Notes under the pieces: model-generated
Seen by the model: the letters and a program-made list of their open reading frames with translations, nothing else
Database searches by the model: none
What the model was told of the DNA's origin: nothing
Shown here: positions 8,226-44,212 of the stretch, one piece after another
Position numbering within the stretch: position 1 is the stretch's first letter
Layout: every line of letters starts with the position of its first letter
Program-made: the position numbers and the translations under genes
Assembly: GCA_964481585.1 (NCBI GenBank)
Contig: CAYZVT010000001.1
Coordinates: 1-44,212 of the forward strand
Reading direction: 5' to 3'
Source of the DNA: an uncultured Pirellulales bacterium
Lineage (GTDB): Bacteria; Planctomycetota; Planctomycetia; Pirellulales; CAYZVT01
Length of the DNA stretch: 44,212 nucleotides

Positions 8226-8239
8226 GCGGAGCGACTCGC

Positions 8240-21221: not shown

Positions 21222-21520
21222 CGAAACCTCTGCCACCGAACTTGCTTCCGAACATGCCGATCTTTCCCCTTGCTCTAGGCGCTTGCCAGCCCGAAGCCGG
21301 CATTTTTTTTGAAACTTTTTAAAAAGCGTGGGCCTGCCAGGGCAAATCGCTGAAATTGCACCGCCCTGCAAGCGGCAAGGAGGAAACAGCCCGAGCCGCT
21401 CAGCCACAGGGCAGGGGCGCGGCTGCTGGAGAGAATCGGCCGGCGGCGAAGAAGCGGCGAAGCTCTGGCGGTGCTGGGGAGCGCCGCGCCCCAGGCGCCT
21501 ATCCGCCCACAGGCACCCGG

Positions 21521-29303: not shown

Positions 29304-30953
29304 TCAGGGATGCGATGGCGGCGGCGCTGCGGTCGCCGGTACAGGCCCTGCTTCGAAAAGAATCTTGATCTGCTCGGCGCTCAGTGCTCGATCGTACAGA
29401 TGCACCTCGTCAACCGATCCTGCGAAGAAGGCGTCGCGTCCCCGGGCCGTGCCCCGCTGGTGGGCGAGCTTGCTGTGTCGCAAGCCCATCAGCACTTGGC
29501 TGTGGGCGGTGTCGTAGCGTTCCAGCTGCGCCCCGCGGAGGCGACCGTAGCGCTCTCCGTTGCGATAGAGCGTGATCGTGCCCGACGATTCGTAAGTGAT
29601 GGCCAACAGGGCCGTCTCGCCGGGCAGCATCGGCTCGGGGACGACAAACTGAGGCCGCTGCTGGGTCCGGCGAAAATAGTCGCTGCCGTTGATCCAGACC
29701 AGTGGCGCGATTTCGGCGAACACCAGACCGTCGAAAATCTGCGCGCGCGGCTTTTCGAGAATCACCACGCCGCCGCCTTGTTGTTCAAAATTGGCGGGCG
29801 CTACCCAGGCAACGAGCGAATACTCGCTAAGATCTTTCGCCAAGGGAGAGGCCCGCAGGTAGCCGTCCACGCCGTTGAGCAGCAGGCGTCCCTGCGCGAT
29901 TGTCGCGCTGCCGTGCAATGCGCCGTGCAGACCGCCGATGTGATCCAGGGCGCTATCGTCGTTGAACGTCCAGCGATGGATCAGCGCGCGTTCAAGCCCT
30001 TCGCGGGCGGCGGCGGCTACCATCTCGGGCAGGTCCGCTGTGCGCAAGAACCGTTCCGGCTGCGAGGAGTAGGTGGGCGACGTTTCGGGGGAAGGCGTTT
30101 TGGCAAGCCGCGTCGCCTGGCCGACCGCCAGCACGAGCGGTGGGGAGCCGTTGGTGGGCTGAACGAGCACGGACCCGGAGAAGACATGGATCTCGGCGTC
30201 TCCCCGCGCATCGACCGCCACGCCGAACTCGGTCCCCAGGTCCACCACCGTCCCCCGGGGCGTTTCAATCGCAAACTCCGCCGTCGCTTTGGCCACCAGA
30301 GCCGTAAGTTTGCCCCGTAGCAACCGCCCCCTGTGCGGCGCGGCCAACTGGAACCGCGCCGGACCGCTCAATACGACGCGGGTTCCCTCCTGAAAGGCGA
30401 TCTCGACCGTTCCCCGCTCCAGTTTCAGCACTTTCCCCTGCCGCAACGCCGCACCCGCCGCGATGTCTGGACTGCCCGCCGCCCACTGGCAGTCAATCGC
30501 CTGGGTCAATCGCGCCAGCACAGCGGGCGCCGAGTGAGGTTGCGGTAAAGGACTCGCCGGAGGCGGGACGCGGCGCACATGCACTTGCGCCGACGTCAAA
30601 AGCAGCGAGACAATCGCCACCAGCGCAAAGACCACCGAGAAGCCCGAAGTCCGCGTTAAGTAGTCGCGCACCGCCGCCCAGCCGCTGCGCGAGGGGTCGG
30701 GCAGCGGCGCGATGGTCAGCGGCACCGGCGGCGGAGCGGCCGTCTCCGGCAACGGCAAAACCGTCCGCCGCATCTCCGTCCGCCAATGGATCTCAGTGTG
30801 GAGATCAAAATACTCCAGATAAACCTGCCGCGCCGCCGGGTCGTTCGCCAGCAGCTGCTCTAGTTGCTGCACTTGCTGGCGAGTGAGCATGCCGCTGCAT
30901 AGGCCGTCGATCAGCGCCAGCAGCGTATCGCGTGATTCCTGCGGGGCGCTCAT
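29304..30953 (-). CDS. FecR-family anti-sigma factor with C-terminal LamG sensor domain
   Basis: Its ATG at 30953 overlaps the sigma gene stop (ATGA). One TM segment (FSVVFALVAIVSLLL). FecR region (AEFAIETPRGTVVDLGTEFGV). LamG-type tail FFAGSVDEVHLYDRALSAEQI. Confidence 0.8.
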   Translation of the reverse strand: MSAPQESRDTLLALIDGLCSGMLTRQQVQQLEQLLANDPAARQVYLEYFDLHTEIHWRTEMRRTVLPLPETAAPPPVPLTIAPLPDPSRSGWAAVRDYLTRTSGFSVVFALVAIVSLLLTSAQVHVRRVPPPASPLPQPHSAPAVLARLTQAIDCQWAAGSPDIAAGAALRQGKVLKLERGTVEIAFQEGTRVVLSGPARFQLAAPHRGRLLRGKLTALVAKATAEFAIETPRGTVVDLGTEFGVAVDARGDAEIHVFSGSVLVQPTNGSPPLVLAVGQATRLAKTPSPETSPTYSSQPERFLRTADLPEMVAAAAREGLERALIHRWTFNDDSALDHIGGLHGALHGSATIAQGRLLLNGVDGYLRASPLAKDLSEYSLVAWVAPANFEQQGGGVVILEKPRAQIFDGLVFAEIAPLVWINGSDYFRRTQQRPQFVVPEPMLPGETALLAITYESSGTITLYRNGERYGRLRGAQLERYDTAHSQVLMGLRHSKLAHQRGTARGRDAFFAGSVDEVHLYDRALSAEQIKILFEAGPVPATAAPPPSHP

Positions 30954-31483
30954 CGCGAGCGCTCCTGAGCGAGTGCCCGGTTGATGCAGTCGTAAAGCGA
31001 TTGGCGGATGCGTCGCAACGATTGATAGACGCCGTCGGCCGAACGCCCCCGGTGCGCGGCGACCTGCTTGATGCTGGTGTTGCGCTCGTAACACTGCTCC
31101 AGAAGCTGCCGGTCGGCAGGGCTCAATTTTTCCAAGCAGAAAGGCAGCGCCTCGCGCCGCGCCGCAAAGAGATCCACCTGAGCAGCCCGCTCCGCGCTTA
31201 GCGCGGCCAGCAGCGATTGGCTGAAGACGGTTTGCTGGCGGCGTTTACTTTGGACAAAGTTGTTCGCTTCGTAATAGGCAATCCGGCATGCCCAGGCGAA
31301 GAAATTGGTGTCGGGTTGGAACTCGTCGAACTTGCGCCACAAAATCAGGCTCGTCTGCTGCAACAAATCTTCGGCGTCGGCCGTGTTTTGCACCAGCGCA
31401 TGCAAGTAGCCCAGCAACTGGCGTTGATGCTGGGAAAACAGTTCCACAAAAGCGTCGGGCCGTTTCTCCGTTTTTCTCGCCAT
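30950..31483 (-). CDS. ECF sigma factor
   Basis: 177 aa from ATG 31483. Region 2 AEDLLQQTSLILWRKFDEFQPDTNFFAWACRIAYYE. Region 4 IKQVAAHRGRSADGVYQSLRRIR. Confidence 0.85.
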   Translation of the reverse strand: MARKTEKRPDAFVELFSQHQRQLLGYLHALVQNTADAEDLLQQTSLILWRKFDEFQPDTNFFAWACRIAYYEANNFVQSKRRQQTVFSQSLLAALSAERAAQVDLFAARREALPFCLEKLSPADRQLLEQCYERNTSIKQVAAHRGRSADGVYQSLRRIRQSLYDCINRALAQERSR

Positions 31484-31724
31484 ATGCCATCTCTGGATAG
31501 TCGCGCGAATCGAACCGGCTACCGCCGAGCCAGCTCCGCCCCACGCCGCGACGGTCCGCCCGACAGAACGCCCCGCCATATAACTAACGTGGCGATCGCG
31601 AAGAATCTGAGGCAATTTTTTGCAACAGGCTGGCCGTTCCCCAATCCGTTGCCGTCAGCGCTCTTTAGCCTCCTGTAGAAACCGCGCGGAAGCGCCGTGA
31701 AACCACGATCAGCAACAAAGAAAC

Positions 31725-31748
31725 GCCAGACGCGGGCAGGCGTCTGGC
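31725..31748. other. perfect 9-bp-stem hairpin in the 666-bp divergent intergenic region
   Basis: gccagacgc-gggcag-gcgtctggc, read directly. Function unknown. Confidence 0.5.
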
Positions 31749-32149
31749 ATTGGTGTAAAGCATTGGTGGCTAAGCAGTTTCGCCTGCGTCTTGTAGTGCC
31801 CCCTCATGGACGGGAACCACAAACCCTGTGACTAAGTGGAGCGGGCAATGCGGGGGTAAGACACAGCAACCCGCGCTTGGATCGCCGAGCGCGTCCGCCA
31901 GTGTCTGATTTTCCCGCCGGTCCAAGCGCCTGGCCAGCCTGCTGCGCAGCCGCGCCGGCGCGGCGTAACATGCGTACCACCATTCCGGTTACCTCAGTCT
32001 TGCCAGACCTACTGGAACAATTGAGGGGGTTGCGGTACACTAGGCGGACCCCACGGGTGGAGCGAGAACAGGCCTGGCATCCGCTACTGAATTTTCCCGA
32101 CAACGGCGCTTCTCGGCGCGCGCTGCGGGGCCTGCCAAGGAAATCTGCC

Positions 32150-33961
32150 ATGCCCGAACCCGAGGAACTGGCCTATCGGCGTTGGCTCGGCTGGAAGCAC
32201 TCAACCGCACCGAACCATTACGAACTGCTGGGCGTCCCTAGCGAGGTTGCCGACCCGGATCAAATCTCTGCGGCCGCGCAGCGGCGTCTGGCGCAACTGC
32301 GGCAAGCCCAGCCGACAGGCGACGCGGAGGCAGCGCAGCTCAAGCGGCTGCTGTACGAAGTGACGCGGGCGCGGCAGTGCCTAGTCGATCCGCAACTGCG
32401 TGCCCGCTATGACCGCAGCCTCGCCGCGCCGGCGCTGGAGCCGCTCGACTTGGCGCTCTGCCCGGACTTGCCGCTCGAACCGCTCCGCGCGCCCGTGGCG
32501 ATCGGTGGTCACTTGCCGCCCCGCCAAGTCCTGTCCCGTTCCCGCGCGCTGGGCAAGCTCTCCGCGGGCTGGTGGGCCGGTGCCGCCGGCTCGGGGTTGC
32601 TGCTGTTGACCGGCGGCTTGATTTACCTGACCCGCGACGCCGACGCGATCCCCGTCGCTCAAGCCGACGCGCCGAGCCGCGAAGAGGCGTCGGCCGACAA
32701 TGCGCCGCCTCCGCCGACGCCACCGCGTCCGTCCAATGCGCCTCAGCCGCAGCCGAATGAAGCGCCCTTGCCCACGCCGGAACCCGCGCTGCCGGCCCAG
32801 TCGCTCCCGAGCGGTCCGCCTCCCGCTCCGTTTGCCAGCCTGCCGGCCGAGACGGAGTTGCCCCGGCGCGTGCTCTCGCAGACATTGGGCGTCGAGGCTG
32901 CCGGTTCGCGGCGACTCGGCCCCGTAGCGCTGGCCGGACGCAAGTTGAGCGTCGCGCTTGACTGTTCGGCTTGCGATCTGCCCGGCAGTTATGCTTTTGT
33001 TGTCGAACCGCATCCCCAGAACGCCGAGCAATGGCTCGTGCGCCTTGCGCCGCGTCCTGCCGAGAACAATCCCGCGTCCGCAGAGGCGGCCGACTCGTCG
33101 CTCGCCGTCTTACCGGCATCGCTCGCGCCGGTGGCCTTGCTGACGGCGGCCGATGGGCAATTGGCGTTTCAGTGGAACGCGGAGAATACCGAGCCGCGGG
33201 CTGAACAGTTGCGCAACGCGGTGCTCCACCTGCGGGCCGGCGAGATGTCGCACGCGCTGCGGCTGCGCAGGGTGCGGCGCGTGCCGCCTTGGACGGTCGA
33301 CTTGGCCAGCGAGGCACACCGCATTGGCTTGGACCTGCCCCATCCGCCGCCGAGGGAGCAGTTGTTTTTGGAGATCACGGCGCTGGACGGTTTTGACCTG
33401 CAACTGGCGTACGTCGTGGCCGACCGCAAATTTGGCGTGGGCGAAGTGGCGGAGATTCCGATCCACGCCACCCCCGAGGCGAGCCTCAACCTGAGCTTGG
33501 TGCAACAGGACGAGGGTTGGGAGATCACCATCTTCAGCCATTACCAGATCGGTCGCCGCGCGACGGATTTACACGCCGAACAAGTGCGGACGACGCTGCT
33601 GGGTTTGAACAGGACGCTCCAGGAAAACGCCGCCGAGATGCGCGCCGCGCAAGCGGCGGTCGAAACGATCGGCCTCCGCTTGCGGTATCTACAGGGCCTG
33701 CCGGCTCCCACCGGGATAAGCCGCGAAATCCAGATGGCGGCACGGCTGCAAGAAGCGCGGAATCTGCAAGCGCAGCTCAAGAAGGCGCTAAGCACGATCC
33801 GCCGCTTTGAAAACTCGCTTCCCCGTACGCAGTTGGCGCTCCAGCAGATGACTTCCTTGGCGGCGGCTTGCACGGCACTGCATCAGCATGCGCGGGTCCA
33901 CTATCGCGTGGTGGCCGACACGCCCGCCGGGGAGCGGGAACTATCGATCGCCGGTCCCTAG
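32150..33961 (+). CDS. bitopic membrane protein: N-terminal J-like domain lacking HPD, TM, Pro-rich linker, beta-rich + coiled-coil C-terminal module
   Basis: ATG 32150 with AAGGA 9 nt upstream. In-frame TTG 31877 and ATG 31970 are possible but look non-protein-like. J-like sequence NHYELLGV...RRLAQLRQAQPTGD...LVDPQLRARYDRSL. TM segment at about 32567-32630. Confidence 0.65.
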   Translation: MPEPEELAYRRWLGWKHSTAPNHYELLGVPSEVADPDQISAAAQRRLAQLRQAQPTGDAEAAQLKRLLYEVTRARQCLVDPQLRARYDRSLAAPALEPLDLALCPDLPLEPLRAPVAIGGHLPPRQVLSRSRALGKLSAGWWAGAAGSGLLLLTGGLIYLTRDADAIPVAQADAPSREEASADNAPPPPTPPRPSNAPQPQPNEAPLPTPEPALPAQSLPSGPPPAPFASLPAETELPRRVLSQTLGVEAAGSRRLGPVALAGRKLSVALDCSACDLPGSYAFVVEPHPQNAEQWLVRLAPRPAENNPASAEAADSSLAVLPASLAPVALLTAADGQLAFQWNAENTEPRAEQLRNAVLHLRAGEMSHALRLRRVRRVPPWTVDLASEAHRIGLDLPHPPPREQLFLEITALDGFDLQLAYVVADRKFGVGEVAEIPIHATPEASLNLSLVQQDEGWEITIFSHYQIGRRATDLHAEQVRTTLLGLNRTLQENAAEMRAAQAAVETIGLRLRYLQGLPAPTGISREIQMAARLQEARNLQAQLKKALSTIRRFENSLPRTQLALQQMTSLAAACTALHQHARVHYRVVADTPAGERELSIAGP

Positions 33962-34022
33962 TTGATCGTCATGGCATTCGAGACGTAAGGCCACTTGTCC
34001 CTTGGAGCAAGAGCAAACAACG

Positions 34023-35375
34023 ATGAGCGCTTCGCGTGATTTGCGAATTCAGTTGCGGTCGCGGGTGACCTGCCCGCACTGCTGGAAAAGGTTTGCGCCG
34101 GAAGACGTGCTGTGGATCTCGACGCACCCGAGCCTGCTCGACGACCCGCTGTTGGGGAGCGACCACCAGCAGCGTTTTCTGCCGACGCGGTTTAATGTCG
34201 ATGGCAACGCAATCGACTCGCGCGGGTCCGTTTGTCAGGAGCTCGCCTGTCCGCATTGCCACCTGTCGGTGCCGCGGGCGTTATTGGAAGTCGCGCCGCT
34301 GTTTGTGTCGATCATGGGCACGCCGTCGTGCGGCAAGTCGTATTTTCTGGCCTCGATGACCTGGCAACTCCGCAAGCGGCTGCCGCAGTACTTCGCCATG
34401 ACGTTCGGCGACGCCGATCCGGTTTCGAACAAGATCGTGAACCACTACGAGGAAGAACAGTTCTTCAACCCCCGCCGCGATGAAGTCGTCAAGCTGGCGA
34501 AAACCGAAGAGCAAGGCGACCTGTACGACACGGTTCGCTATGGGGAGCAGGTGGTGACTTATCCGCGACCGTTTCTGTTCAGCGTTCATCCGGGGCGCGA
34601 CCATCCGCACCACGACAACGCCCGCAAGATCGCGCGAATCTTGTGCCTGTACGACAACGCCGGCGAATCGTTCGAGCCGGGCAAGGACACGGCGGCCAAT
34701 CCGGTGACGCGGCACTTGGCCCAATCGCAGGTGCTGATGTTCTGCTTCGATCCGACGCAAGATCCGCGCTTCCGCGACGCCTGCCGGGGCCATTCGCAAG
34801 ACCCGCAAGTGCTTGAACAGCCCGTTACCTCGCGGCAGGAAACCGTACTGCATGAAATCGCCGATCGCGTCCGCAAGCATACCAAGCTCAAGCAAGGAGA
34901 ACGCCACCAGCGGCCGCTGATCGTGATCGTCACCAAATACGACGCTTGGTGGCATCTGCTGGGCGAGCAGCACTTGGAATCCCCGTGGGTTTGGGGCCCG
35001 CAACAAAAATGGTGCGCTTTGCAAATGGCGCAGATCGACGACGTCTCGGCCCGGCTGCGGGCGGTGCTGTGGCAGCTCTGTCCCGAAATCGTCTCGGCCG
35101 CCGAGGGCTTTGCCGAACAGGTGGTCTACGTGCCGGTCAGCGCGACCGGCTGCGGCCCGCAGCGCGATCCGGCGACCGGCGCGCTGGGCGTGCGGCCGCG
35201 CGACATCAAGCCGCAATGGGTCGAAGTGCCGCTGCTGGTGGCGCTGGCCCGCTGGGGCGGCGGCATGATCGCCTACAAGCAACGCCCACGCTCGCAACCC
35301 CCTCATTCTCGTCCGGTCGCGGCCACCGCGCCGCCGTCGAGCAACGGCCATCCTCAGACGAAAGAGGCCCGATGA
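34023..35375 (+). CDS. Zn-ribbon + TRAFAC-class P-loop GTPase
   Basis: Two CPHC pairs (34071-34082 and 34248-34259). G1 GTPSCGKS (34317-34340). G3 DNAGE (34653-34667). G4 TKYD (34932-34943). G5-like VSATG. No TM segment. Confidence 0.8.
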   Translation: MSASRDLRIQLRSRVTCPHCWKRFAPEDVLWISTHPSLLDDPLLGSDHQQRFLPTRFNVDGNAIDSRGSVCQELACPHCHLSVPRALLEVAPLFVSIMGTPSCGKSYFLASMTWQLRKRLPQYFAMTFGDADPVSNKIVNHYEEEQFFNPRRDEVVKLAKTEEQGDLYDTVRYGEQVVTYPRPFLFSVHPGRDHPHHDNARKIARILCLYDNAGESFEPGKDTAANPVTRHLAQSQVLMFCFDPTQDPRFRDACRGHSQDPQVLEQPVTSRQETVLHEIADRVRKHTKLKQGERHQRPLIVIVTKYDAWWHLLGEQHLESPWVWGPQQKWCALQMAQIDDVSARLRAVLWQLCPEIVSAAEGFAEQVVYVPVSATGCGPQRDPATGALGVRPRDIKPQWVEVPLLVALARWGGGMIAYKQRPRSQPPHSRPVAATAPPSSNGHPQTKEAR

Positions 35376-37930
35376 GCCAGGAACTGATTTACACCTCCGC
35401 CCCGCGCGGCTTGAAAGTCGGCAGCCGGGGGTTTTGCACCGTCGCCAGTACACCCGGTATGGCCAAAAATCTGGCCGAACGGCTCGAAGCCCTGAGCGGC
35501 TATCGGCATGTCTTTCCGCCACAAGATCCGCAGGCCGCGCTCAACCCCGTGGCGTGGTCGTGCCTCGCGCTGCAACTGGGGCCACTGCGCTACTGGGTGC
35601 TTTCGCGCGTGGCCGACGCGGGGCTGGATTATTCGCAGCGCACCAATAAGCTCGCCCATCATTTGGTCCTGGCCCAAGGCGAACTGCCGGCCGCCGGCCC
35701 CGCCGCGACGCTTGCGCAGCCGGGCGTGATGGAGACCCGTTGGACGGGCGAGCCGCGCCTGCTCACCAGTGGTCGCCCGCTACCCAAGGGCGACGCGCCA
35801 CCGAGCGTCTGTCACGCTTGGCAGCAAACGGCCGGCGACGCCGGTTGGGCGGGCGTCCTGGCGCAAACGCTGATTGACGGCCCGCGCGAGGCGTGCTTAA
35901 TCTTCCGCCCGGGCCAAGACCTGCTGCCGCTGATCCGCGAGGCACAAGCCTTGCTGCCGGCTGCGCTGCGCTGGCAAGCGACGTTCAGTACCTACTACAC
36001 GAAACTGCCGGCGGGAGCCGAATGCGCGTGGCGGTGCGTCGTCGATGGCACGCCCGAAGCAACCGCCGCGCGGCGCGCGGCGCATGCCTTGGTGCTCGAC
36101 TTAACCCGTCCCCTCGGCGCCGCCCCACAAACCACGGCGACCACCGCCGCCCGGCAAGGCCAATTGCTCACCTTGCCCGCCCCGCGCAGCGCGACGCCCG
36201 ACGCCGCACCGGACGCCGCCACCCCCGAGTCCACCGCCGCCGGGCGGTCCAGCGGCGACTACGGCCTCGCGCCGCCCGCCCTGGTCCAACCGCCCGACCG
36301 AGGCTTCCCCCCGCCCCGCACCGGCGAACCCATCCGCTTCCACCGTCCCAAACGCCGCCGGCGCGGGATGTTGCTCGCGGCGTTAGTCGGACTCTTGGCG
36401 GGAATGGCAGGCGTGTGGGCCTGGCGTCAATATGGCACCGCCGCGCCCGTCGTAGCGACGGCCCCTAAAGCAGCGGCTGCATCGCCCGGCAAAGCGAAGC
36501 CCAAGAAAGTGGCGGAGAAGTCTGTAGAAACGGAGGCCGCTCGGCCCGTGCCGTCGGTGCCGGAGCAGAAAGATCGTGGCGCAGGTGGAGGCACTGCCAC
36601 ACCGCAAGGACGCGACATGGATGGCGACAATAATTCTTCGTCGAGGGACAGTGGTGACGCAGACCAACGCCAAAACTCAACGACCGAGACAGGCGGCGAA
36701 GGAGGATCGGAATCGACAGAGCCACGGAAAAAGAAGCATGCGGAAGCGCAAGAAGACAAGAAAGAGCCGAAGAAAGAGCCTCTCCCTAAACAAGAACCGG
36801 CAGCCAAGGATCCATTTGCCGACCTGCCGCTGGTGATTGTGATGAAAGAGACGGGAACTGGCAGCGGTTTGGGATCAGAACCAACCGACGATTCGATCAT
36901 CCTTCATGCCGATCCGAAATCTGTCGAGTTGGAGTTGATCCGGCTATTCGCAACTGCCCCGGGAGATGAACTTAAATTAAAAAATGAATCCGACGCAACA
37001 CAACGTACGTGGAACGTGATGTGGAATGCCACGTCGATTGGCAGCGTGAGCTTAACTTCCAACACGCCCAAAGAACGGCCTGCATCGGCGAAGCTCTCGT
37101 TCGAGTGGAAACTGCCCAAGGGCGAGGGCGAGGGCCTGAAGAAAAAAATTGCCGCATTCGGATTGCTCATTCGCGTGGGAAAAGAAAAGGTCGCTTGCCG
37201 GTGGATTACCGACAAGCCCTTGGCGACAAAAAATAGATTGACGCTTAGCCAGAGACACCAGGACGGCAGATTGATATTGCCAGGGTTACCTAAGGTGAAC
37301 TCACCGTTCGGATACGACCTTCAGATTCTTTCAGCTTCCTATCCCAATCCGAATCAATGGAACAAGAAGCTTTCTCGCGAGATGGTTTTGTTAGACTCGG
37401 GACCGATTGACAACACTGGCAATTACCATCGCCTCCTTTGCCGTTGCCGTCTGAGCCTTGACCACACCCAGTCAAGTATCGGATACGATCTTCGAGTCGT
37501 CGGCTTTACGCATGAACATACTCGAAGCCTGGAGTACGGCGAAAAGAGCATTGCAGACTGGCTTGAGCAGAACCGTGGGACTTCATCAGACAGGTTACAG
37601 CGCGTTACGAATGCTGAACAAAGGCGAGGCGATCTGAGCGGGGAAGTGGACGATATGACTCAACAACTTGAGAAAGCCCATGACAAAAATAAAAAGCAGA
37701 TAGAACAGCAGCTAGAAGACGCGAAAAAGAAGCTACGCAGCGCGGAGCATGAGCTAGCAAAGGTGCAATTTGACAAAGCCGTGGACGACTTTTCTCGGGC
37801 GCTTCAAAAGCAAGATGTCACGCTCTCCGTGCGCATCGTGCTTGTTGATCCTCAGAAACGCTTTCCTCCGGTTCCGGTTTTGGATTTTACTCGCGATACT
37901 CACAGCGAAACCCTTACGACGCGGAACTAA
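35372..37930 (+). CDS. GAP1-like (GTPase-associated protein 1-like) bitopic protein with charged low-complexity linker and low-GC C-terminal module
   Basis: Its ATG overlaps the GTPase stop (ATGA at 35372-35375). N-terminus MSQELIYTSAPRGLKVGSRGFCTVAS...DYSQRTNKLAHHLVL. TM segment at about 36368-36424. K/E/D/S-rich linker. The C-terminal 350 aa are encoded at 40-45% GC. Confidence 0.7.
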   Translation: MSQELIYTSAPRGLKVGSRGFCTVASTPGMAKNLAERLEALSGYRHVFPPQDPQAALNPVAWSCLALQLGPLRYWVLSRVADAGLDYSQRTNKLAHHLVLAQGELPAAGPAATLAQPGVMETRWTGEPRLLTSGRPLPKGDAPPSVCHAWQQTAGDAGWAGVLAQTLIDGPREACLIFRPGQDLLPLIREAQALLPAALRWQATFSTYYTKLPAGAECAWRCVVDGTPEATAARRAAHALVLDLTRPLGAAPQTTATTAARQGQLLTLPAPRSATPDAAPDAATPESTAAGRSSGDYGLAPPALVQPPDRGFPPPRTGEPIRFHRPKRRRRGMLLAALVGLLAGMAGVWAWRQYGTAAPVVATAPKAAAASPGKAKPKKVAEKSVETEAARPVPSVPEQKDRGAGGGTATPQGRDMDGDNNSSSRDSGDADQRQNSTTETGGEGGSESTEPRKKKHAEAQEDKKEPKKEPLPKQEPAAKDPFADLPLVIVMKETGTGSGLGSEPTDDSIILHADPKSVELELIRLFATAPGDELKLKNESDATQRTWNVMWNATSIGSVSLTSNTPKERPASAKLSFEWKLPKGEGEGLKKKIAAFGLLIRVGKEKVACRWITDKPLATKNRLTLSQRHQDGRLILPGLPKVNSPFGYDLQILSASYPNPNQWNKKLSREMVLLDSGPIDNTGNYHRLLCRCRLSLDHTQSSIGYDLRVVGFTHEHTRSLEYGEKSIADWLEQNRGTSSDRLQRVTNAEQRRGDLSGEVDDMTQQLEKAHDKNKKQIEQQLEDAKKKLRSAEHELAKVQFDKAVDDFSRALQKQDVTLSVRIVLVDPQKRFPPVPVLDFTRDTHSETLTTRN

Positions 37931-37932
37931 CC

Positions 37933-40851
37933 ATGCTGCGCCAGCACCAGTTTATTGATGAGATTCAGCAGGCCGTGTATGCGCCGATGTCGGCGGAGCC
38001 GGAGTTGTTGCGGGATGCGGCGGCGGAGTATAGCGAGGCGTGTAGCACGGCCAATGCGCGGCTGCGGCAGGTGGGTTACTTGTTGCGGCAGGGGCTGCGG
38101 AGCGAGGCGCTGCAGGAGGCCGAACGCGAGCCGAACTTGCTCGATCTGGTCGCGCTGCTCGATTTTCCCGAGGCACCGGTCTGGTGTGCGCTGTTGCAAC
38201 AGTGGGGCATGGCGACGCCGCCGGCGCTGGCGGTCGATGTCGCGGCCGATCTGAATCAAGCCTACGCCGATCAAGAGCCGCTCAAAGAGATGCTCAAAAA
38301 GCATCGGCTGTTGGCCCTGGCCCGTGCGCCGCTCCATGCCCGCATCCATACTTTGCGGCGCATCCGCCAGGCCGATCCGGACAACGCCGCCTGGTATGCC
38401 GATCTCCAAGCGTTGGAAGAAGCCCGGCTGAATCAACTCGCCCAGGAAGCGGAGCGGGCCTTTGCGCGGGCGGATGCCGAGCAACTGCGTGCCCTGGCGT
38501 CGGAACTGCAAGCGGGCGACTGGCTCGCGCCCCCCGCGCCGGAACTTGTGGCCCGCGTGCGGCAACTCGAACAACAGATCGCTGCGAGACAAGCGCGGCT
38601 GGCGCTGGAGCAGTTGGAGCCGGAATTGACGGCAGCCTACGCCGCCTTCGATGTGGAAGCAGGCGCTGCGCTCCGCACGCGCTGGGAAGCACTGGCCGCC
38701 CAGGCGCAGCTTGCGCCTCACGACCCGCTGGCCGAACGGGCGGAGCCGGCGCTGGAATGGTTGGCCGACCAGGATGAGCTGGCCGCTCGCCGCGCGGCGC
38801 ATCAGGCGGCGGTCTATCGGCTGGAGGAAGCGCTGGCCGACGATGCTACGCCTGGACAACTCGAAAAGCTCTACCATGCCGTGCCCGACCACGAGGAGGG
38901 CGTGCCGCTTCCGTTGCAAAATCGCCTCCGCGCGCGGGTTGCCGCCGCCGAGCTGAACCAGCGCCGCAAGCACATGCTGACCGTGGTCGGCATCGCGGGG
39001 GGATTGCTGCTCGTCGCCGGCGTGGTTTTTATGCTCCTGCGGATGCAACAGCACGGCCGGCAGGTCACCGCGAGCACGCAAAGCTTACGGCAACTGATCG
39101 ACCATGGCCGCTTGGACGAAGCCGACCAGTTTTTCGATAACCTCCGCACGAGCGCTCCCAAAGTCGCCGAAGCCGCCGAAGTCCAACAGCAGCTTGGCCG
39201 ACTGCGCGGCGCGCAATCCGACGAACAAGCACGCCGCGCGGCGTTCACCCAGGCGATCGAGCAAGCCGAAGCGGCAGGTCCAGAGCAGCCCGACGAAACG
39301 GCGCTGGAACTGGCCCGCGAAAAAGTCCGCACCGACAGCGAAAAGGCACGCCTCTCGCGATTTGAATCGGCCGTCGCCGCAGCCCGCCGCGCACAGCAGA
39401 AAGCGCGGGACGACATATTTTTGGCGAAACTCGCAGCGCTGCGCGACAAGCTCGCCCAGTTGGAAGAAAGCACCCGCGAGAATGAACAGTCGGAAGCGGA
39501 GCTTGCGCAGCTGGCCGCCGAGCTGCGCAGCCTGCGCGAGAGCAACGGGCTGGTCACGCGGTCGATCTTGGCCCAAGCCGATCCGTTGATCGTACGGACC
39601 GACGCGCTGCGCAAGCATGTGCGGACGCGGATCGCGCAGCAAAAGCAGTTGCGTGAAATCACTACTGCCGTGGGCGACGTGTCACGATTCAGCGAAGAGT
39701 TGGCGCGGTTTGCCACGCTGTATCCCGAAGCCGCCTCCGCCGCGGCGTTCCGCACGGTGGCTCAGGAAGCCGATACTTGGCAGGGCATGGTCGAATGGTC
39801 GCAACTGCTGGCCGCGCCCGAGCTGCGCCGACTCGCCGCGCTTTCGCCCAAGGCGGCCCAAGCGTTGTTGATGCGCGGCCAGGCGCTGCGGCAGCGTTAT
39901 GCCGGGATTCCGCTGGCGGAAGAGTTCGCCGACAAGGAACCGTACCTGCAGGACTTGGCGCAGCGGCAATTCGACTCCGACGATCCGCCCTCCGCTGCCG
40001 CGCCGCAAAACCAGACGAAGCAACTCCTGAACGATCCGCTCATCGCCAACATCTGGATGGTGCAAGAGGCCGACGGCACGCGCTACTATCTGACGCGCAA
40101 GCCGGACATGAGCAATGCCAGCGCGACGGGACGGGTGGCGATCGAGTACCTCGCCGGCTTCGATCTGAAAACGCAGCGCGCCGGCATTGAGACGCGCACC
40201 TTGACCTACAATGACGAAGCGCCGCAAACGCGGGCGGCCCGCCGGTGCCTGGAGCATCTCCGTGATCTGACGGCGAATAACTGGGAGGAGACGTATTTTC
40301 GGCTGTTGAAAGAAGTGCTCGACGACGAGCAAATCGACCCGATCCTCAAGCTGGTACTGGTCCAGCGCATCGCCTCGCATGGCGGGCTGGCGAGCACCAT
40401 CTTCCGCACCGCTTGGGAGCCGTGCGAACGGCATCTGAAAAGCGCCGAATTGCAACTTGGCGCGCCGTGGATGCTGCCCCGCGACGACGAGGCCGTGCAG
40501 GCCCGCAACGCCGCCGAGCATGTGCTCGCGACGCTTCCCCCCTGGAATGAAGCGGCGCGCGCGGCGGCGACGAAGCTGCGCGAGGTCCAGGCGCCGCCGC
40601 GGCATCAGTACCACTGGATCGGCTGGCTGGAGCATGATCCGCAGGCGGGCTGGCGGTGCCGCACGCCGAGCGGCGCGTTCTCCGACGGGAATTTGCTGGT
40701 GATCTATCGTCCGGCAGATGCCCAGCGGGCGGAACTCGCGCCCGTGGCCACGCGATCGGGCGGTAGCATCACCTGGCAGGCCGAAACCTCGACGGCATTT
40801 CAAGCCGGACGTCCCATTTTTTTACAAGTCACGGGCCGAGCCACGAAGTGA
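37933..40851 (+). CDS. 972-aa predominantly helical bitopic membrane protein
   Basis: ATG lies 2 nt after the previous stop. About 350-aa N-terminal helical region. One TM segment (MLTVVGIAGGLLLVAGVVFMLL, about 38974-39042). Long A/E/Q/R-rich coiled-coil stretch, then a globular C-terminal region. Confidence 0.7.
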   Translation: MLRQHQFIDEIQQAVYAPMSAEPELLRDAAAEYSEACSTANARLRQVGYLLRQGLRSEALQEAEREPNLLDLVALLDFPEAPVWCALLQQWGMATPPALAVDVAADLNQAYADQEPLKEMLKKHRLLALARAPLHARIHTLRRIRQADPDNAAWYADLQALEEARLNQLAQEAERAFARADAEQLRALASELQAGDWLAPPAPELVARVRQLEQQIAARQARLALEQLEPELTAAYAAFDVEAGAALRTRWEALAAQAQLAPHDPLAERAEPALEWLADQDELAARRAAHQAAVYRLEEALADDATPGQLEKLYHAVPDHEEGVPLPLQNRLRARVAAAELNQRRKHMLTVVGIAGGLLLVAGVVFMLLRMQQHGRQVTASTQSLRQLIDHGRLDEADQFFDNLRTSAPKVAEAAEVQQQLGRLRGAQSDEQARRAAFTQAIEQAEAAGPEQPDETALELAREKVRTDSEKARLSRFESAVAAARRAQQKARDDIFLAKLAALRDKLAQLEESTRENEQSEAELAQLAAELRSLRESNGLVTRSILAQADPLIVRTDALRKHVRTRIAQQKQLREITTAVGDVSRFSEELARFATLYPEAASAAAFRTVAQEADTWQGMVEWSQLLAAPELRRLAALSPKAAQALLMRGQALRQRYAGIPLAEEFADKEPYLQDLAQRQFDSDDPPSAAAPQNQTKQLLNDPLIANIWMVQEADGTRYYLTRKPDMSNASATGRVAIEYLAGFDLKTQRAGIETRTLTYNDEAPQTRAARRCLEHLRDLTANNWEETYFRLLKEVLDDEQIDPILKLVLVQRIASHGGLASTIFRTAWEPCERHLKSAELQLGAPWMLPRDDEAVQARNAAEHVLATLPPWNEAARAAATKLREVQAPPRHQYHWIGWLEHDPQAGWRCRTPSGAFSDGNLLVIYRPADAQRAELAPVATRSGGSITWQAETSTAFQAGRPIFLQVTGRATK

Positions 40852-40895
40852 GCACGAATCTCGCCTTCGCTTTTTGGAAACGTGAGGTGTCAATC

Positions 40896-41410
40896 ATGGA
40901 ACAAGCACTCTACATCCGCATTCGCGGCCGGGTTCAAGGTCCCTTCGAACCGGACAAGCTCAAGGCGCTCGCCAAGCGAGGGCAACTGAGCCGGATGCAT
41001 CAGGTTTCTCCCGACGGCGCGAACTGGCAGCGGGCGAGCGATTATCCCGACCTGTTCGTCACGACCGCGACCGTGCCGGCAGCCGCGATGGGCAACGGCG
41101 CAGTGGGTAACGGCGCGGCGAGCGCGCCCGCGTTTGAGGAGCAAACGACTTCGGCCGAACCGCTGGGGGCGCAAGGCTCGGCCCAATGGTACTACGCCAA
41201 GGGGGAGAGCCAATTCGGTCCCACCGACTTTGAGCACTTGCGGCAACTTGCCGCCAGCGGCCAACTCCGCCCTCAGGATGCCGTCTGGAGCGAAGGCATG
41301 AGCGGTTGGGCCACGGCCGACAGCATCGCCGGGCTAACCTTTGGCGCCGCGCCGCAAGTCGCCGGCTCTGAACACGGGGTGCATGGTTCTCAGACGAGCA
41401 TAGCCGGCCG
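40896..41410 (+). CDS. GYF-GYF domain protein, N-terminal part of a frameshifted gene
   Basis: ATG 40896 with a GTGAGGTG SD sequence. GYF_2-like motifs ALYIRIRGRVQGPFEPDKLKALAKRGQL and QWYYAKGESQFGPTDFEHLRQLAASGQLRPQDAVWSEGMSGWATADSI. After about 41410 the frame turns Arg/Gly-rich and junk-like, although it stays open to 42014. Confidence 0.55.
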
Positions 41411-41414
41411 GCCG
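41403..41414 (+). repeat. (GCCG)3 tetranucleotide tract at the GYF-gene frame junction
   Basis: Read directly: gccg gccg gccg at 41403-41414. Removing one unit fuses the two frames. Confidence 0.9.
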
Positions 41415-41454
41415 CACGTCGCGTCGCGAGAGTACGGAAGTCAGCGACAGCATC

Positions 41455-41856
41455 GTGCGGCCGCTGTTGGCTTCCAAAGGCTGGGTGACATTTCTCGGGG
41501 TCTTTGCGATTATCTTGGGCGGCATTGCGCTCTTGCCGGCCATGTTGCTCTTTTCCGCAGCGGCCCGCGAACCGGAGGTGCTGTTTCTAGGTCTCAGCCC
41601 TCTGCTGAACTGCGCGGTCTTAGTCACGACCGGAGTGCTGCTGCTGGGCTACAGCGGGGCAATCCGCGACCTGGCCTATACGCCCAGCACCGTGCGACTC
41701 GCCGCCGCGATGCGGAAACTCTCGACCTTCTGGACGTTCGCGGGGATTGTGGCGCTCGTGTTCCTGGGGCTCACGGTGGTGGTGGTTTTATTGATGGTCC
41801 TGGGACTGGTCGGCATGGCGGCTGCGCTGTCCGACGTGATGCTTCTGACTCTCTAA
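41455..41856 (+). CDS. polytopic membrane module (C-terminal part of the GYF gene, or a separate GTG-initiated ORF)
   Basis: The frame is open from 41404. It predicts 3-4 TM helices (WVTFLGVFAIILGGIALLPAMLLF, VLVTTGVLLLGY, FWTFAGIVALVFLGLTVVVVLLMVLGLVGM). Its stop lies 15 nt before the MotA-like start, matching the operon packing. Confidence 0.55.
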   Translation: MRPLLASKGWVTFLGVFAIILGGIALLPAMLLFSAAAREPEVLFLGLSPLLNCAVLVTTGVLLLGYSGAIRDLAYTPSTVRLAAAMRKLSTFWTFAGIVALVFLGLTVVVVLLMVLGLVGMAAALSDVMLLTL

Positions 41857-41871
41857 CTCGATCGGACCCTT

Positions 41872-42786
41872 ATGAATCTTTCGGCTACGACCGAGGCCTC
41901 GGCGGCCGCATCGGCGTCCAACCTAACTGGGCAAGAGCCGACCTTGTCGTGGGCCCGCCGCGACTTGGAGCAGCGGCTCGGCTTTCGCGGGGCGCGCTTC
42001 ACGCGCGTGAATAATCTGTTGTCGTTTCTGCTCGCGGGAGTGGCGACCGTCGGATTCTATCTGTTGCTGCTGCCGATCGCCGAGACGCCCCTGGCGGCGA
42101 TGTTTACCGAGCGCGGCCCGACTCCTTACTTCATCGCCTTCTTCTCCTGTTGGTCGCTGGCGATCCTGCTGCTTAAATGGGGGAAGCTGAAATTGCAGCG
42201 CCAAGCGCTCGCGCATCGCGTCGTGCCCGACGATCCGACCTTTGTGCTCTCGCCTAGCACGGCCGACGATGTGATGCACCGCATTTACGCCACGGTCGAT
42301 GATCCCCGGCATTTCTTGCTTTTCAATCGGATCGTGATCGCGCTGTCGAACCTTCGCAATCTGGGCCGCGTCTCCGATGTGGATGAGATTCTCCGCTCGC
42401 AAGCCGAACACGACGAGTCGTCGGTCGAAACCAGCTACGCGCTGCTCAAAGGCTTTATCTGGGCGATTCCGGTGCTGGGGTTCATCGGCACGGTGCTGGG
42501 CTTGTCGCAGGCCATCGGCGGCTTCGGCAGCGTGCTGGGCAATTCGCAAGACCTGAGCCAAATCGCCGCTTCGCTGAAGGGCGTGACGGCCGGGCTGGCA
42601 ACCGCTTTTGAAACGACGCTGGCCGCACTGGTTGCCGCGCTGGCGATTCAAATGCTGTTCACGTTCCTCAAAAAGTCCGAGGAAGAGTTTCTGGACGAGT
42701 GCGCCGAGTATTGCCATCGCCATGTGGTCAACCGCCTGCGGCTGATGCCGTTTGAATCCCAGGATGCGCAGCATGTCGCGTCGTAA
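41872..42786 (+). CDS. MotA/TolQ/ExbB proton-channel family protein
   Basis: 304 aa. TM helices plus the family signature region FIWAIPVLGFIGTVLGLSQAIGGF....LKGVTAGLATAFETTLAALVAALAIQMLF. Confidence 0.85.
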   Translation: MNLSATTEASAAASASNLTGQEPTLSWARRDLEQRLGFRGARFTRVNNLLSFLLAGVATVGFYLLLLPIAETPLAAMFTERGPTPYFIAFFSCWSLAILLLKWGKLKLQRQALAHRVVPDDPTFVLSPSTADDVMHRIYATVDDPRHFLLFNRIVIALSNLRNLGRVSDVDEILRSQAEHDESSVETSYALLKGFIWAIPVLGFIGTVLGLSQAIGGFGSVLGNSQDLSQIAASLKGVTAGLATAFETTLAALVAALAIQMLFTFLKKSEEEFLDECAEYCHRHVVNRLRLMPFESQDAQHVAS

Positions 42787-43597
42787 TCGGGATGTCACGC
42801 CATTTTCACTGTTCGCGTTTCAGGACATCATCACCGCGGTGACGGGCATCATCGTGCTGGTGACGCTGCTGTTGGCGCTGGACCTGTTCACCCGCAAGCC
42901 GAACACGCCCGACCTCGATACCCATGCGCTGGCCGAACAGGCTCGCCGGGCGATTGCCGCCGCGCAGGCGGAGCAGGTCGAGTTGGAGGCGCAACGGGCG
43001 CAGGATCAGACGGTCGTGTTGGCAACCGCCCGTCTTTCGCCGAGCGAGGTGGAACGGCGGCGGTACGATCTCACGCAGGAAAGTGCCCAGTTGCGGCGTG
43101 AATTGTCCGAGCTGGACGCGCAAGTGGCCCGTGCGGCGGCGGCCCGCGACAAACTGGAAGCGGAGCGTTACGAACGGCGCGACGACGCCGAGCAGCTCGC
43201 CGCGCTGCGGGCGCAGTTGGCGGCGCTCGAGGCGAAGCTGGCGGAGTTGGAGCAGTCGGAGCGGATGATTTACAACTTGCCCCCCGACGCCGAGAAGCAA
43301 GCCTGGCTGGTCGAGGTGGGCGAGGAGGAAGTGCAAGTGGCCCGCGCGGGGATCGACGAGCCGCCGCAAACGTACTCTGCCCGCGAGACTGTGCTCAGCG
43401 ACTCGCCGCTGACGGAATGGATTCGCACGCGCCAGCCAGCTCGCGAGTACTTCGTGCTTTTGGTGCGCCCGCAGGGGGTCCGCGTTTTCGACGACTTGCG
43501 CGAGCATTTGCGCCGGGAGGGATTTGAATACGGCTTCGATCTCATCGGCCGGGACGTGACGGTGTTTGACCCGGAACATGGAGCCGCCGCACCATGA
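42773..43597 (+). CDS. ExbD/TolR-like single-pass protein with inserted coiled-coil stalk
   Basis: ATG 42773 (AGGA SD sequence) overlaps the MotA-like gene by 14 nt. N-terminus FSLFAFQDIITAVTGIIVLVTLLLAL is ExbD-like. About 100-aa A/E/Q/R heptad region. C-terminus YFVLLVRPQGVRVFDDLREHLRREGFEYGFDL is ExbD-periplasmic-domain-like. Confidence 0.6.
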   Translation: MSRRNRDVTPFSLFAFQDIITAVTGIIVLVTLLLALDLFTRKPNTPDLDTHALAEQARRAIAAAQAEQVELEAQRAQDQTVVLATARLSPSEVERRRYDLTQESAQLRRELSELDAQVARAAAARDKLEAERYERRDDAEQLAALRAQLAALEAKLAELEQSERMIYNLPPDAEKQAWLVEVGEEEVQVARAGIDEPPQTYSARETVLSDSPLTEWIRTRQPAREYFVLLVRPQGVRVFDDLREHLRREGFEYGFDLIGRDVTVFDPEHGAAAP

Positions 43598-44212
43598 GAC
43601 GCCGCGCGACCGACGATCAAAGCAGCTTGGAACTGCTGCTCGACACGATCACAAATACGTTTGGCGGGGTGTTGTTCATTGCAATCCTGATCGCGATCTT
43701 GCTGCAACTCAGCGGCCGCATTGAGCGCGAAGCGCCGCAGCCGGTGCCGCAGGCCGAGTTGATCGCGCTGCGGCAGCAATTGGCCGACGCGCAAGCGGCG
43801 CTTGGGGCGCTGCGCGCGGCCGTGGAAGCCCAGGAGCAGGTAGCCGCCGATTTCAGCCCGCAGGCACTCAGCGACCAGGCGCGCGAGGTAGAGGCGCTGG
43901 AGCAGCAGCGCGACGCGCTGCGGACGAAGCGGCTGGCGCTGCTGGAACAACTGAGCGGGCTGCATGTGGAGTCGGGGGCGATTGCCGCCGAGTTGGAAAG
44001 ACTCGCTGCGGAGCAGGCGACCGTTGCCGAAGCGGTACGCCAGGCCGAGGCGGCACTACGGAGCGAGGTGGAGCAGCGCTCCGTCGCCGGACGATTGCCC
44101 AAAACCCGCCCCACCTACAAGCGCGAAGTGGCATGCCTCGTGCGGCACGGGCGGCTGTACTCGTACTTCCAAAACCCGCCCCAAAGGATGGTCGAGTCGC
44201 CCGTCGCGGAGC
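43594..44212 (+). CDS. second ExbD/TolR-like coiled-coil protein (paralogous architecture), 3' partial
   Basis: Not in the ORF track because it has no stop within the window. My translation from ATG 43594 (ATGA overlap with the previous stop) is open to the window end: MRRRATDDQSSLELLLDTITNTFGGVLFIAILIAILL, followed by coiled coil. Confidence 0.6.
   Translation, partial: MRRRATDDQSSLELLLDTITNTFGGVLFIAILIAILLQLSGRIEREAPQPVPQAELIALRQQLADAQAALGALRAAVEAQEQVAADFSPQALSDQAREVEALEQQRDALRTKRLALLEQLSGLHVESGAIAAELERLAAEQATVAEAVRQAEAALRSEVEQRSVAGRLPKTRPTYKREVACLVRHGRLYSYFQNPPQRMVESPVAE

Follow-up and report, generated by a model that had tools for sequence, protein, structure and literature searches.

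An operon of eight co-directional genes lies at one end of a 44,212-nucleotide stretch of DNA from an uncultured Pirellulales bacterium (assembly GCA_964481585.1, contig CAYZVT010000001.1, positions 1 to 44,212; this whole stretch is the window referred to below). The genes, here called g1 to g8, run on the plus strand from 32150 to the window end at 44212, as read from the open reading frame (ORF) listing and its translation. A preliminary description, made from the letters alone, had proposed that they form an undescribed trans-envelope system in which a Zn-ribbon GTPase and a GAP1-like protein are linked to a stator powered by proton-motive force (PMF). The case set out here rests as a whole on comparative genomics, which identifies a co-conserved gene set in Planctomycetota and points to a possible machine in which a GTP switch controls a motor of the MotA/TolQ/ExbB family.

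The ORF listing and translation matched every gap and overlap in the earlier list of junctions. A 61-nt gap separates g1 from g2, an ATGA overlap (35372-35375) joins g2 to g3, and gaps of 2, 44 and 15 nt follow g3, g4 and g5, respectively. A 14-nt overlap is shared by g6 and g7, and a second ATGA overlap (43594-43597) joins g7 to g8, which the window end cuts after 206 codons (homologues are about 302 aa long, versus 206 aa inside the window). Such tight or overlapping junctions are consistent with translational coupling, and the intergenic gaps of the operon contain no convincing plus-strand intrinsic terminator.

The predicted switch and motor and the membrane proteins between them

GTPase-centric systems were defined computationally by Kaur, Burroughs, Iyer and Aravind in 2020 (eLife 9:e52696, PMC7159879); as described in the text of that paper, they combine a DO-GTPase bearing Zn ribbons (ZnRs) with GAP1 proteins of the N1 or N2 types, and transmembrane (TM) segments are frequent. 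The g2 gene (34023..35375, plus strand) encodes a protein of this type, a soluble Zn-ribbon P-loop GTPase as first described. An alignment of 38 homologues conserves two CPxC motifs, a Walker A motif (G.P..GKS), a Walker B motif (CLYDNAGE) and a TKxD motif, and hydropathy finds no TM segment; the protein has a Pro-rich C-tail. With a Glu in Walker B and N-terminal Zn ribbons, the motifs match the DO-GTPase definition given in the text of PMC7159879. Against the Pfam family DO-GTPase2 (PF19993) the score is borderline, at 25.7 bits just below the cut-off of 27, and it is by motifs and by context, directly 5' of a GAP1 gene, that g2 can be counted as a DO-GTPase.

The partner gene g3 (35372..37930, plus strand) had been likened to the GAP1 N-domain, a likeness that proved correct: Pfam places GAP1-N2 (PF20013, E=1.2e-28, 100 bits) and GAP1-M (PF20014, E=1e-14, 55 bits) in it, both above cut-off. 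These domains are followed by a Pro-rich juxtamembrane linker, a single TM segment (aa 332-350 by hydropathy), which agrees with the bitopic topology first assigned, and an extracytoplasmic region of about 500 aa made up of an acidic/Lys-rich low-complexity stretch, a beta-rich part and a coiled coil. No GAP1-C domain is matched by Pfam beyond GAP1-M, and its position is occupied by the linker, TM segment and extracytoplasmic region. The linker is 15% Pro, versus 7% in the N-terminal domains, and PPxP-type motifs are present in the linkers of 28 of 40 GAP1 homologues, with PPPLPG in several; the linker of g3 itself contains GFPPPRTGEP. Neither g2 nor g3 has a significant match among solved structures. 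By its domains and position, g3 is shown to be the predicted cognate GAP1-N2/GAP1-M partner of g2, anchored in the membrane and carrying a large extracytoplasmic part. A local anomaly in base composition at 36001-38000 (GC down to 0.58, AT skew up to +0.20) coincides with the coiled coil of that part and with its low-complexity stretch, which is rich in Lys, Glu, Asp and Ser.

At the other end of the operon lie the candidate motor genes. The product of g6 (41872..42786, plus strand; 304 aa) is a channel subunit of the MotA/TolQ/ExbB family with four hydrophobic segments and without a long tail, in agreement with its original assignment. It scores 47.5 bits against MotA_ExbB (PF01618; cut-off 22.9) and carries two invariant motifs, GFIGTVLG and ATAFETT, which are TolQ/ExbB-like (GTV.G, TT) and contain the invariant residues G203, G206, T207, G210, T244, E247, T248 and T249. 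When a profile of this family was compared with solved structures, TolQ and ExbB came nearest, at E~0.1 only.

The two genes that follow are paralogues along their full length (hhalign probability 99.1%, E=9e-19). In g7 (42773..43597, plus strand; 274 aa) a short N-tail leads into a TM segment (18-36) that starts with the invariant FQDII (F16 Q17 D18 I19 I20), and about 110 helical residues and a small alpha/beta C-domain come next. In g8 (43594..44212, plus strand) the TM segment (19-37) is preceded by the invariant SLELLLD, of which D17 (LLLD17T) is the Asp. The invariance of g7 D18 and g8 D17 was established in 29-69 sequences. An AlphaFold2 (AF2) model of g7, with a predicted local distance difference test (pLDDT) score of 85, places a TM helix at 14-40 and further helices at 48-84 and 90-161, followed by a beta-beta-beta-alpha-beta-alpha-beta C-domain. 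Both proteins are shown, at the level of prediction, to cross the membrane once, their TM segment having an invariant Asp at its cytoplasmic end, and to carry a helical stalk of about 110 residues and a small C-domain. An Asp at the cytoplasmic end of a membrane helix is the position of the proton-carrying Asp in MotB, ExbD and TolR.

The preliminary description had called g7 and g8 ExbD/TolR-like proteins with stalks of about 100 aa. The Asp-bearing TM segment and the stalk stand, and homology to ExbD or TolR does not. Pfam matches neither ExbD/TolR (PF02472) nor the OmpA-like domain of MotB in either protein, profile searches of the PDB returned coiled-coil artefacts only, and a Foldseek search with the g7 model gave nothing at E<=1e-3, with ExbD, TolR and MotB absent from the top 50. 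An hhalign comparison with E. coli ExbD and TolR also gave no match, a result to be taken as a lead only. The label 'ExbD-like' is therefore valid for architecture and genomic position, as analogy rather than homology.

Between switch and motor lie two genes for membrane proteins. The 972-aa product of g4 (37933..40851, plus strand) was rightly described as helical and bitopic, and consists of a helical N-domain (1-342), a TM segment (351-369 by hydropathy), a helical part reaching to about 700 and a mixed alpha/beta C-domain (708-967). Its AF2 model (pLDDT 87.9) is largely helical with the alpha/beta C-domain at the end. No Pfam, NCBIfam or PADLOC family matches it, and Foldseek against the PDB found nothing at E<=1e-3, returning generic helical-repeat matches at E>=3e-3. 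The product of g5 (40896..41856, plus strand) joins a cytoplasmic GYF-GYF module to a DUF5362-like module with 3-4 TM segments once the gene is repaired, as had been outlined from the translation; Pfam finds GYF_2 twice (E=1.4e-27) and DUF5362 at 27 bits. The GYF region also matches the NCBIfam model gliding_GltJ weakly (E=1.8e-6, 27 bits, far under the cut-off of 450).

The internal frameshift first reported in g5 is real in the assembled sequence, the GYF-GYF frame and the frame of the membrane module (41455-41856) differing by +1. The frame changes at a (GCCG)3 tract on the plus strand (41403..41414), and removal of one GCCG unit yields a single g5 ORF of 318 codons that aligns with its homologues. 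In the homologues at three of the relative loci described below (L006, L007 and L020) the gene is one intact ORF. A change of one unit in the tract moves the frame by one, and the frameshift could stem from slipped-strand variation, from a real mutation that inactivates the gene or from an error of assembly.

Conservation of the gene set across Planctomycetota

Relatives were sought in one genome per GTDB species, and g6 relatives were found in 548 such genomes, the best 80 of which were taken for loci and are all from Planctomycetota (loci of relatives carry the prefix L throughout). In total 2694 homologues of g6 were found; the top 120 are 60-76% identical to it, and the named ones all belong to Planctomycetota. 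Pirellulales, Planctomycetales, Isosphaeraceae and one member of the Tepidisphaeraceae are represented, and cultured Planctomicrobium and Botrimarina strains are among the relatives. The window proteins were then compared with the loci by tblastn, with 41 loci informative upstream and 48 downstream of MotA.

The genes from g2 to g8 behave as one co-conserved unit, as the first reading had supposed. Upstream of MotA, the GTPase g2 is collinear in 38 of 41 loci (median identity to the window 50%), the GAP1 gene g3 in 39/41 (48%), g4 in 39/41 (28%) and the GYF gene g5 in 38/41 (36%). Downstream, g7 is collinear in 45 of 48 loci and g8 in 44, at median identities of 33% and 34%, while MotA itself, the reference, has a median identity of 63%. 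These counts rule out chance adjacency. The median identities indicate that the motor ring is much more constrained than the extracytoplasmic parts, and the C-terminus of GAP1 can barely be aligned among relatives. Four independent contexts share the order GTPase, GAP1-N2/M, a protein of about 970-990 aa, GYF (with TM segments) and MotA, and continue with optional GYF-X genes, a protein of about 245-275 aa and one of about 305-335 aa before unrelated genes begin. A neighbour-joining tree of MotA holds genus-level clades and is star-like and unresolved at the level of orders; with congruence at genus level only, vertical inheritance is not established by these sequences.

An exact look-up with g6 returned no record that would carry the sequence past 44212, and the 3' limit of the module was taken from the relatives. 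No gene family is conserved 3' of g8, the largest occurring in 6/46 loci, and on this comparison the module ends at g8, with no hidden effector just past 44212. It was correct that the array runs off the window, in that g8 is cut there; a conserved array past g8, or an effector waiting beyond it, is not what the relatives contain. Five loci do share an ORF family just 3' of g8 (L001:8023-9720, L020:12644-14230, L030:6415-7971 and, on the minus strand, L019:10525-12711 and L043:12766-14910), and the one member examined, L030:6415-7971, has a prenyltransferase/squalene-hopene-cyclase-like domain. At L003, from Gimesia, an IS91-family transposase and a tyrosine recombinase (L003:14396-16485) lie directly 3' of g8.

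Between g6 and g7, one to three extra genes are inserted in 18/45 loci. Among the ten such proteins run against Pfam (from seven loci), eight inserts start with a GYF domain, two have a C-terminal domain without detectable GYF, and one has no Pfam match at all. Where they could be identified, the C-terminal domains are of the vWA, trypsin (a GYF-trypsin protein at L034) and prenyltransferase/terpene-cyclase-like kinds. At L036 and L035 the inserts join GYF to the prenyltransferase-like domain, which stands without detectable GYF in the insert at L017.

The 5' end of the operon is variable. The g1 gene (32150..33961, plus strand; 603 aa) had been counted as a member of the linked set and described as a bitopic J-like protein without HPD. 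It falls outside the conserved core, L045 and L020 being the only loci with a homologue 5' of the GTPase (phmmer E=1e-24 and 2e-20), and can be regarded as a lineage-specific 5' accessory gene. The N-terminal J-like region without HPD holds at a sub-threshold level (DnaJ PF00226, E=0.003, 18 bits, under the cut-off of 27.8); the TM segment is doubtful, the putative segment being only weakly hydrophobic, with no hydropathy segment there that reaches 1.6. Beyond the J-like region come a stretch rich in Pro and a beta-rich region, and the protein ends in a coiled coil. The g1 protein and the C-terminal part of GAP1 both look beta-rich, and no fn3 domain was found by Pfam at E<=0.01 in any of the eight operon products; homology between g1 and the extracytoplasmic part of GAP1 was considered and is unsupported (BLASTP E=0.31).

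Directly 5' of the GTPase, 18 relatives instead encode a conserved lipoprotein of about 200-280 aa (L006:1327-1986; also L016, L020-L022, L031, L033, L039-L043, L046, L049, L051, L057, L058 and L063). A lipobox (L-x-G-C-S-G-C) is followed by a long Ser/Pro/Glu-rich disordered linker and a conserved helical C-domain of about 70 aa, the family has no Pfam or NCBIfam match and no OmpA domain, and a six-frame hmmsearch finds it absent from the window. L003 has a second GAP1-N2/GAP1-M gene 5' of the GTPase (L003:1-1765), and at L005 a sigma-70 r4 gene lies on the opposite strand just 5' of the GTPase. Rare exceptional loci suggest that the module is made of two sub-modules: L053 has MotA, GYF-vWA, g7 and g8 without the GTPase half, and L078 has MotA alone. 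A divergent form at L088, where the contig starts 263 nt 5' of the first gene, has four GYF proteins and a shorter g4 homologue.

The rest of the window is made up of ordinary planctomycete chromosomal genes. These include three DUF1559/N-methyl proteins, a GH32 protein, and a PSD/PSCyt multidomain protein (DUF1592/1588/1585/1587/1595) followed by a DUF1552 (HXXSHH) protein at 5703-9535, a typical planctomycete pair. Two pairs of extracytoplasmic function (ECF) sigma factors and FecR/LamG anti-sigma-like proteins are encoded on the minus strand at 29304-31615 and 19015-21407, one of them divergent from and immediately 5' of g1. The 534-nt divergent spacer between this ECF sigma gene and g1 contains a strong terminator-like hairpin on the minus strand (31722-31751), with a 12-bp stem, 7 GC pairs and a T-rich tail.

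A proposed GTP-controlled envelope motor and its alternatives

We propose, with a probability of about one half, that the operon encodes one inner-membrane-anchored trans-envelope machine in which a cytoplasmic GTP switch controls a PMF-driven motor. The interactions, stoichiometry, gating and output of this machine are all ones that we infer. Five copies of g6 would form a ring, and a g7:g8 heterodimer in its pore would act as the proton-conducting 'transpore' pair, whose coiled-coil stalk, about 15 nm if fully extended, could carry rotation or tension through the periplasm. The sensing of an envelope or external cue would fall to the GTPase and GAP1 along with the domains that GAP1 and g4 expose outside the cytoplasm, which the lipoprotein may join in relatives as a sensory or structural part. 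Through the GTPase/GAP1 cycle, this cue would decide when the motor is assembled or engaged. The GYF domains would serve as cytoplasmic docking adaptors for linkers rich in Pro. The juxtamembrane linker of GAP1 would be one of these, its Pro content and PPxP-type motifs making it a plausible ligand. Docking would bring to the motor both the membrane module of g5 and the variable GYF-X proteins. The adaptor idea draws on the GYF-X genes, the Pro-rich GAP1 linker, the likeness of the g5 GYF region to GltJ and a precedent in Myxococcus (PMC11135422), where MglA-GTP and the ZnR-linker-GYF of GltJ engage AglR-AglQ-AglS by what may be the same logic. A precedent in bacteria of the Planctomycetes-Verrucomicrobia-Chlamydiae (PVC) group (PMC12204202) likewise makes it conceivable that proteins as unusual as the Asp-bearing g7 and g8 sit in a TolQ-like ring.

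Several observations weigh against such a machine. In the text of PMC7159879, the whole GAP1-N2 class is interpreted as conflict systems. No solved stator is significantly matched by the MotA profile; apart from the Asp-TM architecture, neither g7 nor g8 detectably resembles ExbD, TolR or MotB in sequence or fold, and the C-domain of g7 gives only weak RNase-H-like/uS11-like Foldseek matches. A Pro-rich motif is to be expected in any Pro-rich linker, and is found in just 28 of the 40 GAP1 linkers. The motor module can occur without a GTPase module nearby (L053 and L078), and at L087:10001-11707 a g7/g8 pair stands without an adjoining MotA, GYF or GTPase gene, among the housekeeping genes for ribosomal protein L21, a folC-like and a MiaB-like protein. 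Lastly, with g5 frameshifted, the system may be inactive in the window itself.

As to biological output, the motor is strongly conserved across the class and a toxic effector is absent, which inclines us towards a part in sensing or remodelling the envelope over one in classical abortive-infection defence. Care must be taken here to weigh the reading of Kaur et al., under which the operon would be a classical conflict system directed against phage or other invaders. The extracytoplasmic parts of GAP1 and g4 would sense the invader and the GTPase would set a threshold, while the motor would be a Zorya-like envelope sensor and transmitter or the channel a depolarizing effector, with GYF-vWA, GYF-trypsin and GYF-prenyltransferase-like proteins as further effectors. 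We regard this as rather unlikely, though a good deal speaks for it: the class membership itself, as read in the text of PMC7159879, the variable GYF-X accessory genes, the hypervariable 5' gene (g1, the lipoprotein or others), the ZorAB precedent and the fast evolution of the extracytoplasmic parts (g4 at 28%, g7/g8 at 33-34% and a GAP1 C-terminus that barely aligns, against 63% for MotA). An integrase or transposase also adjoins the locus in L003 and L005. However, the window encodes no nuclease, protease or TIR effector, as had been observed at the outset, and no nuclease, NADase or TIR-type effector is conserved 3' of the module. PADLOC models go unmatched apart from weak matches to the MotA core, and the window context is one of ordinary chromosomal genes. 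A MotA identity of 60-76% and a fixed gene order in several orders of one phylum and at least 548 species would be unusual for patchy defence islands.

Mobile elements were also searched. No relatives were found among 2.9 million viral contigs, and plasmids hold no close relatives, only MotA relatives of 25-30% identity; this too tells against a conflict system. The closest of these plasmid relatives (29% identity to g6), a MotA/TolQ/ExbB protein of 466 aa, is encoded on Anabaena cylindrica PCC 7122 plasmid pANACY.03, and genes for two small hypothetical proteins come after it (L086, 8914-11493). Its surroundings, with a type III-B CRISPR module on one side and a viperin/deoxynucleoside-kinase pair on the other, are those of a defence island, and it can be counted in favour of a conflict role.

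Alternatively, the operon could be a Ton/Tol-like energizer in which g4 and/or GAP1, acting as TolA/TonB-like transducers, and the lipoprotein in relatives pass PMF on to the outer membrane or cell wall for macromolecule uptake or outer-membrane tethering, the GTPase being only an assembly factor. Among named families, g6 comes nearest to TolQ and ExbB; both g4 and GAP1 have a bitopic topology and long helical or coiled extracytoplasmic regions, a lipoprotein is conserved 5' of the GTPase in the 18 relatives, and vWA-type force transducers have been proposed beside tolQ-like genes in PVC bacteria (PMC12204202). What would make such an energizer recognizable is missing from the operon, in keeping with the initial statement that this is neither Tol-Pal nor Ton: Pfam and NCBIfam match no TolA or TonB (nor a TonB/TolA C-terminal domain), no TolB, no OmpA-like Pal and no linked TonB-dependent receptor. 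A check of invariant columns finds no conserved TolA/TonB-like His in the g4 TM segment, and the lipoprotein, which the window lacks, matches no Pfam domain. We consider this alternative improbable. That the GTPase/GAP1 and MotA modules are simply two independent neighbours is very improbable indeed: L053 and L078 (the motor module without the GTPase module) and L087 (the g7/g8 pair alone) would fit, but the collinear linkage in 38-39/41 loci from different genera and orders, the GYF proteins interleaved in both halves and the overlapping stop and start codons would not.

The proposal of a GTP-controlled, PMF-driven machine can also be taken further. Planctomycetia are FtsZ-less, budding bacteria with enlarged periplasms. 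In a tentative extension that we think unlikely, though worth stating, the operon would be a core and largely vertically inherited GTPase-regulated PMF motor of Planctomycetia, rather than a defence island. To the themes of the GAP1-N2 systems it would add 'motor' as a fourth, with a new heterodimeric Asp-stalk family and a basic envelope task. Possible tasks include the coupling of outer membrane and cell wall during budding, as in Tol-Pal, or the energizing of macromolecule uptake. If this were true, the tubulin- and HSP70-linked GAP1-N2 'conflict' systems of other phyla might be cell-biological machines too.

On the more general proposal, the locus would extend the GAP1-N2 systems by a 'motor theme' and would just as much represent a new GTPase-regulated branch of the MotA/TolQ-type motors with a new partner family. 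We know of no 5:2-type ion-driven motor that shares its operon with a dedicated P-loop GTPase switch to which it is wired; MglA with Agl-Glt is the nearest case, with the GTPase encoded separately and the parts unrelated. The seven core genes form a compact, conserved set that can be tested in cultivable organisms such as Planctomicrobium, Gimesia, Schlesneria and Botrimarina. They open the questions of how a nucleotide switch could gate a PMF motor, what bacterial GYF domains do beyond Myxococcus and which new pore partners a MotA-type ring can take, and they bear on whether the 'conflict systems' of multicellular or aggregating bacteria are immune or envelope/cell-biology machines. The locus is thus relevant to work on 5:2 motors, bacterial GYF/GTPase switches, planctomycete cell biology and conflict systems.

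Comparison with known systems

The GAP1-N2 systems are the closest relatives of the switch half. As in the text of PMC7159879, a TRAFAC GTPase that has a Zn ribbon and a Glu in its Walker B motif is directly followed by a membrane-proximal GAP1-N2/GAP1-M protein with a C-terminal TM segment, and the planctomycete form is linked to a TM-rich protein with two GYF domains, here g5 with GYF_2 twice and DUF5362. GYF-trypsin proteins described there have a counterpart in relatives here (L034). The three linked-gene themes of that paper, each lineage-specific, are tubulin, HSP70/GrpE with DnaJ-fused components, and kinase/PP2C/vWA, all of which its text reads as conflict systems; the J-like domain of g1 recalls the DnaJ-fused component of the HSP70 theme. 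Unlike those systems, the conserved partners here are a MotA-type channel, two Asp-TM stalk paralogues, a bitopic protein of about 970 aa and often a lipoprotein. N2 systems have a component with rapidly evolving FNIII repeats (PMC7159879, text), whereas here Pfam detects neither an FNIII-repeat protein nor GAP1-C, and there is one GTPase rather than a pair.

The claim that the system is undescribed must accordingly be divided. The core of ZnR DO-GTPase, GAP1-N2 and GYF-pair membrane protein is already present in the text of PMC7159879. The motor, the stalk proteins and the protein of about 970 aa are absent from the searchable text, and the text, legends and one supplement of the paper contain no mention of MotA, ExbB, ExbD, TolQ, TolR, stator or proton. 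A literature search found no experimental work on DO-GTPase/GAP1 systems or on the present operon and no other mention of GAP1-N2 or its Pfam families, with DO-GTPases named in passing in one phage-shock-protein (PSP) paper.

Zorya resembles the operon in having a MotA-family channel and an Asp-bearing partner, for which it has been proposed that they link an event at the envelope to a response in the cytoplasm. It differs in that the operon has two different B-type subunits with long periplasmic stalks. PADLOC makes no system call on the operon and gives only weak ZorA-core and coiled-coil matches, its ZorA models matching just residues ~187-276 of g6 at E>=4.5e-6. The early judgement that this is not Zorya is upheld: the 304-aa g6 lacks a long tail, and PADLOC matches no peptidoglycan-binding ZorB and no ZorC, ZorD or ZorE. 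With TolQRA-Pal and ExbBD-TonB the operon shares the PMF-driven 5:2-type motor family.

In PVC bacteria, TolQ-like pentamers have been proposed to take unusual, often heterologous, Asp-bearing 'transpore helix' partners, and vWA-type force transducers have been proposed beside tolQ-like genes and tolR-like pairs (Mol Biol Evol 2025, msaf138, PMC12204202). The operon is similar in having a heterologous Asp-bearing pair beside a tolQ-like gene, with vWA proteins linked in some relatives. It is unlike these arrangements in that coiled-coil stalks and a small alpha/beta domain replace vWA, there is no TPR gene, and a GTPase/GAP1/GYF layer is added.

The preliminary description had also set Agl-Glt aside. 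Excluding the operon from that system is sound, with no Glt/Mgl family match (MglA/MglB, AglZ, GltA-K) in the operon apart from the GYF-level likeness to GltJ; its dismissal as a comparison is not. Myxococcus GltJ is a membrane protein with a cytoplasmic ZnR-linker-GYF, in which GYF binds a Pro-rich sequence of AglZ, while MglA-GTP binds the linker and frees the ZnR, which later recruits the GAP MglB (PMC11135422). This switch engages and disengages Agl-Glt, whose motor consists of the TolQ-like AglR and the TolR-like AglQ and AglS (PMC11135422). The operon differs in that its DO-GTPase carries the ZnR itself, versus a Ras-like MglA, that g7 and g8 lack detectable TolR homology, and that no evidence links it to motility. 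The two are alike in their ingredients: one MotA/TolQ-like protein with two different partners, a cytoplasmic GYF on a membrane protein (the GYF region of g5 weakly matching the GltJ model), a Zn ribbon and a GTPase. By analogy, Agl-Glt can be considered the closest working analogue, one that the operon resembles in logic without being a member. The switch half is of a kind known from computation, and its obligate coupling to a MotA-type motor, two new stalk subunits, g4 and a lipoprotein appears to be what is new to description.

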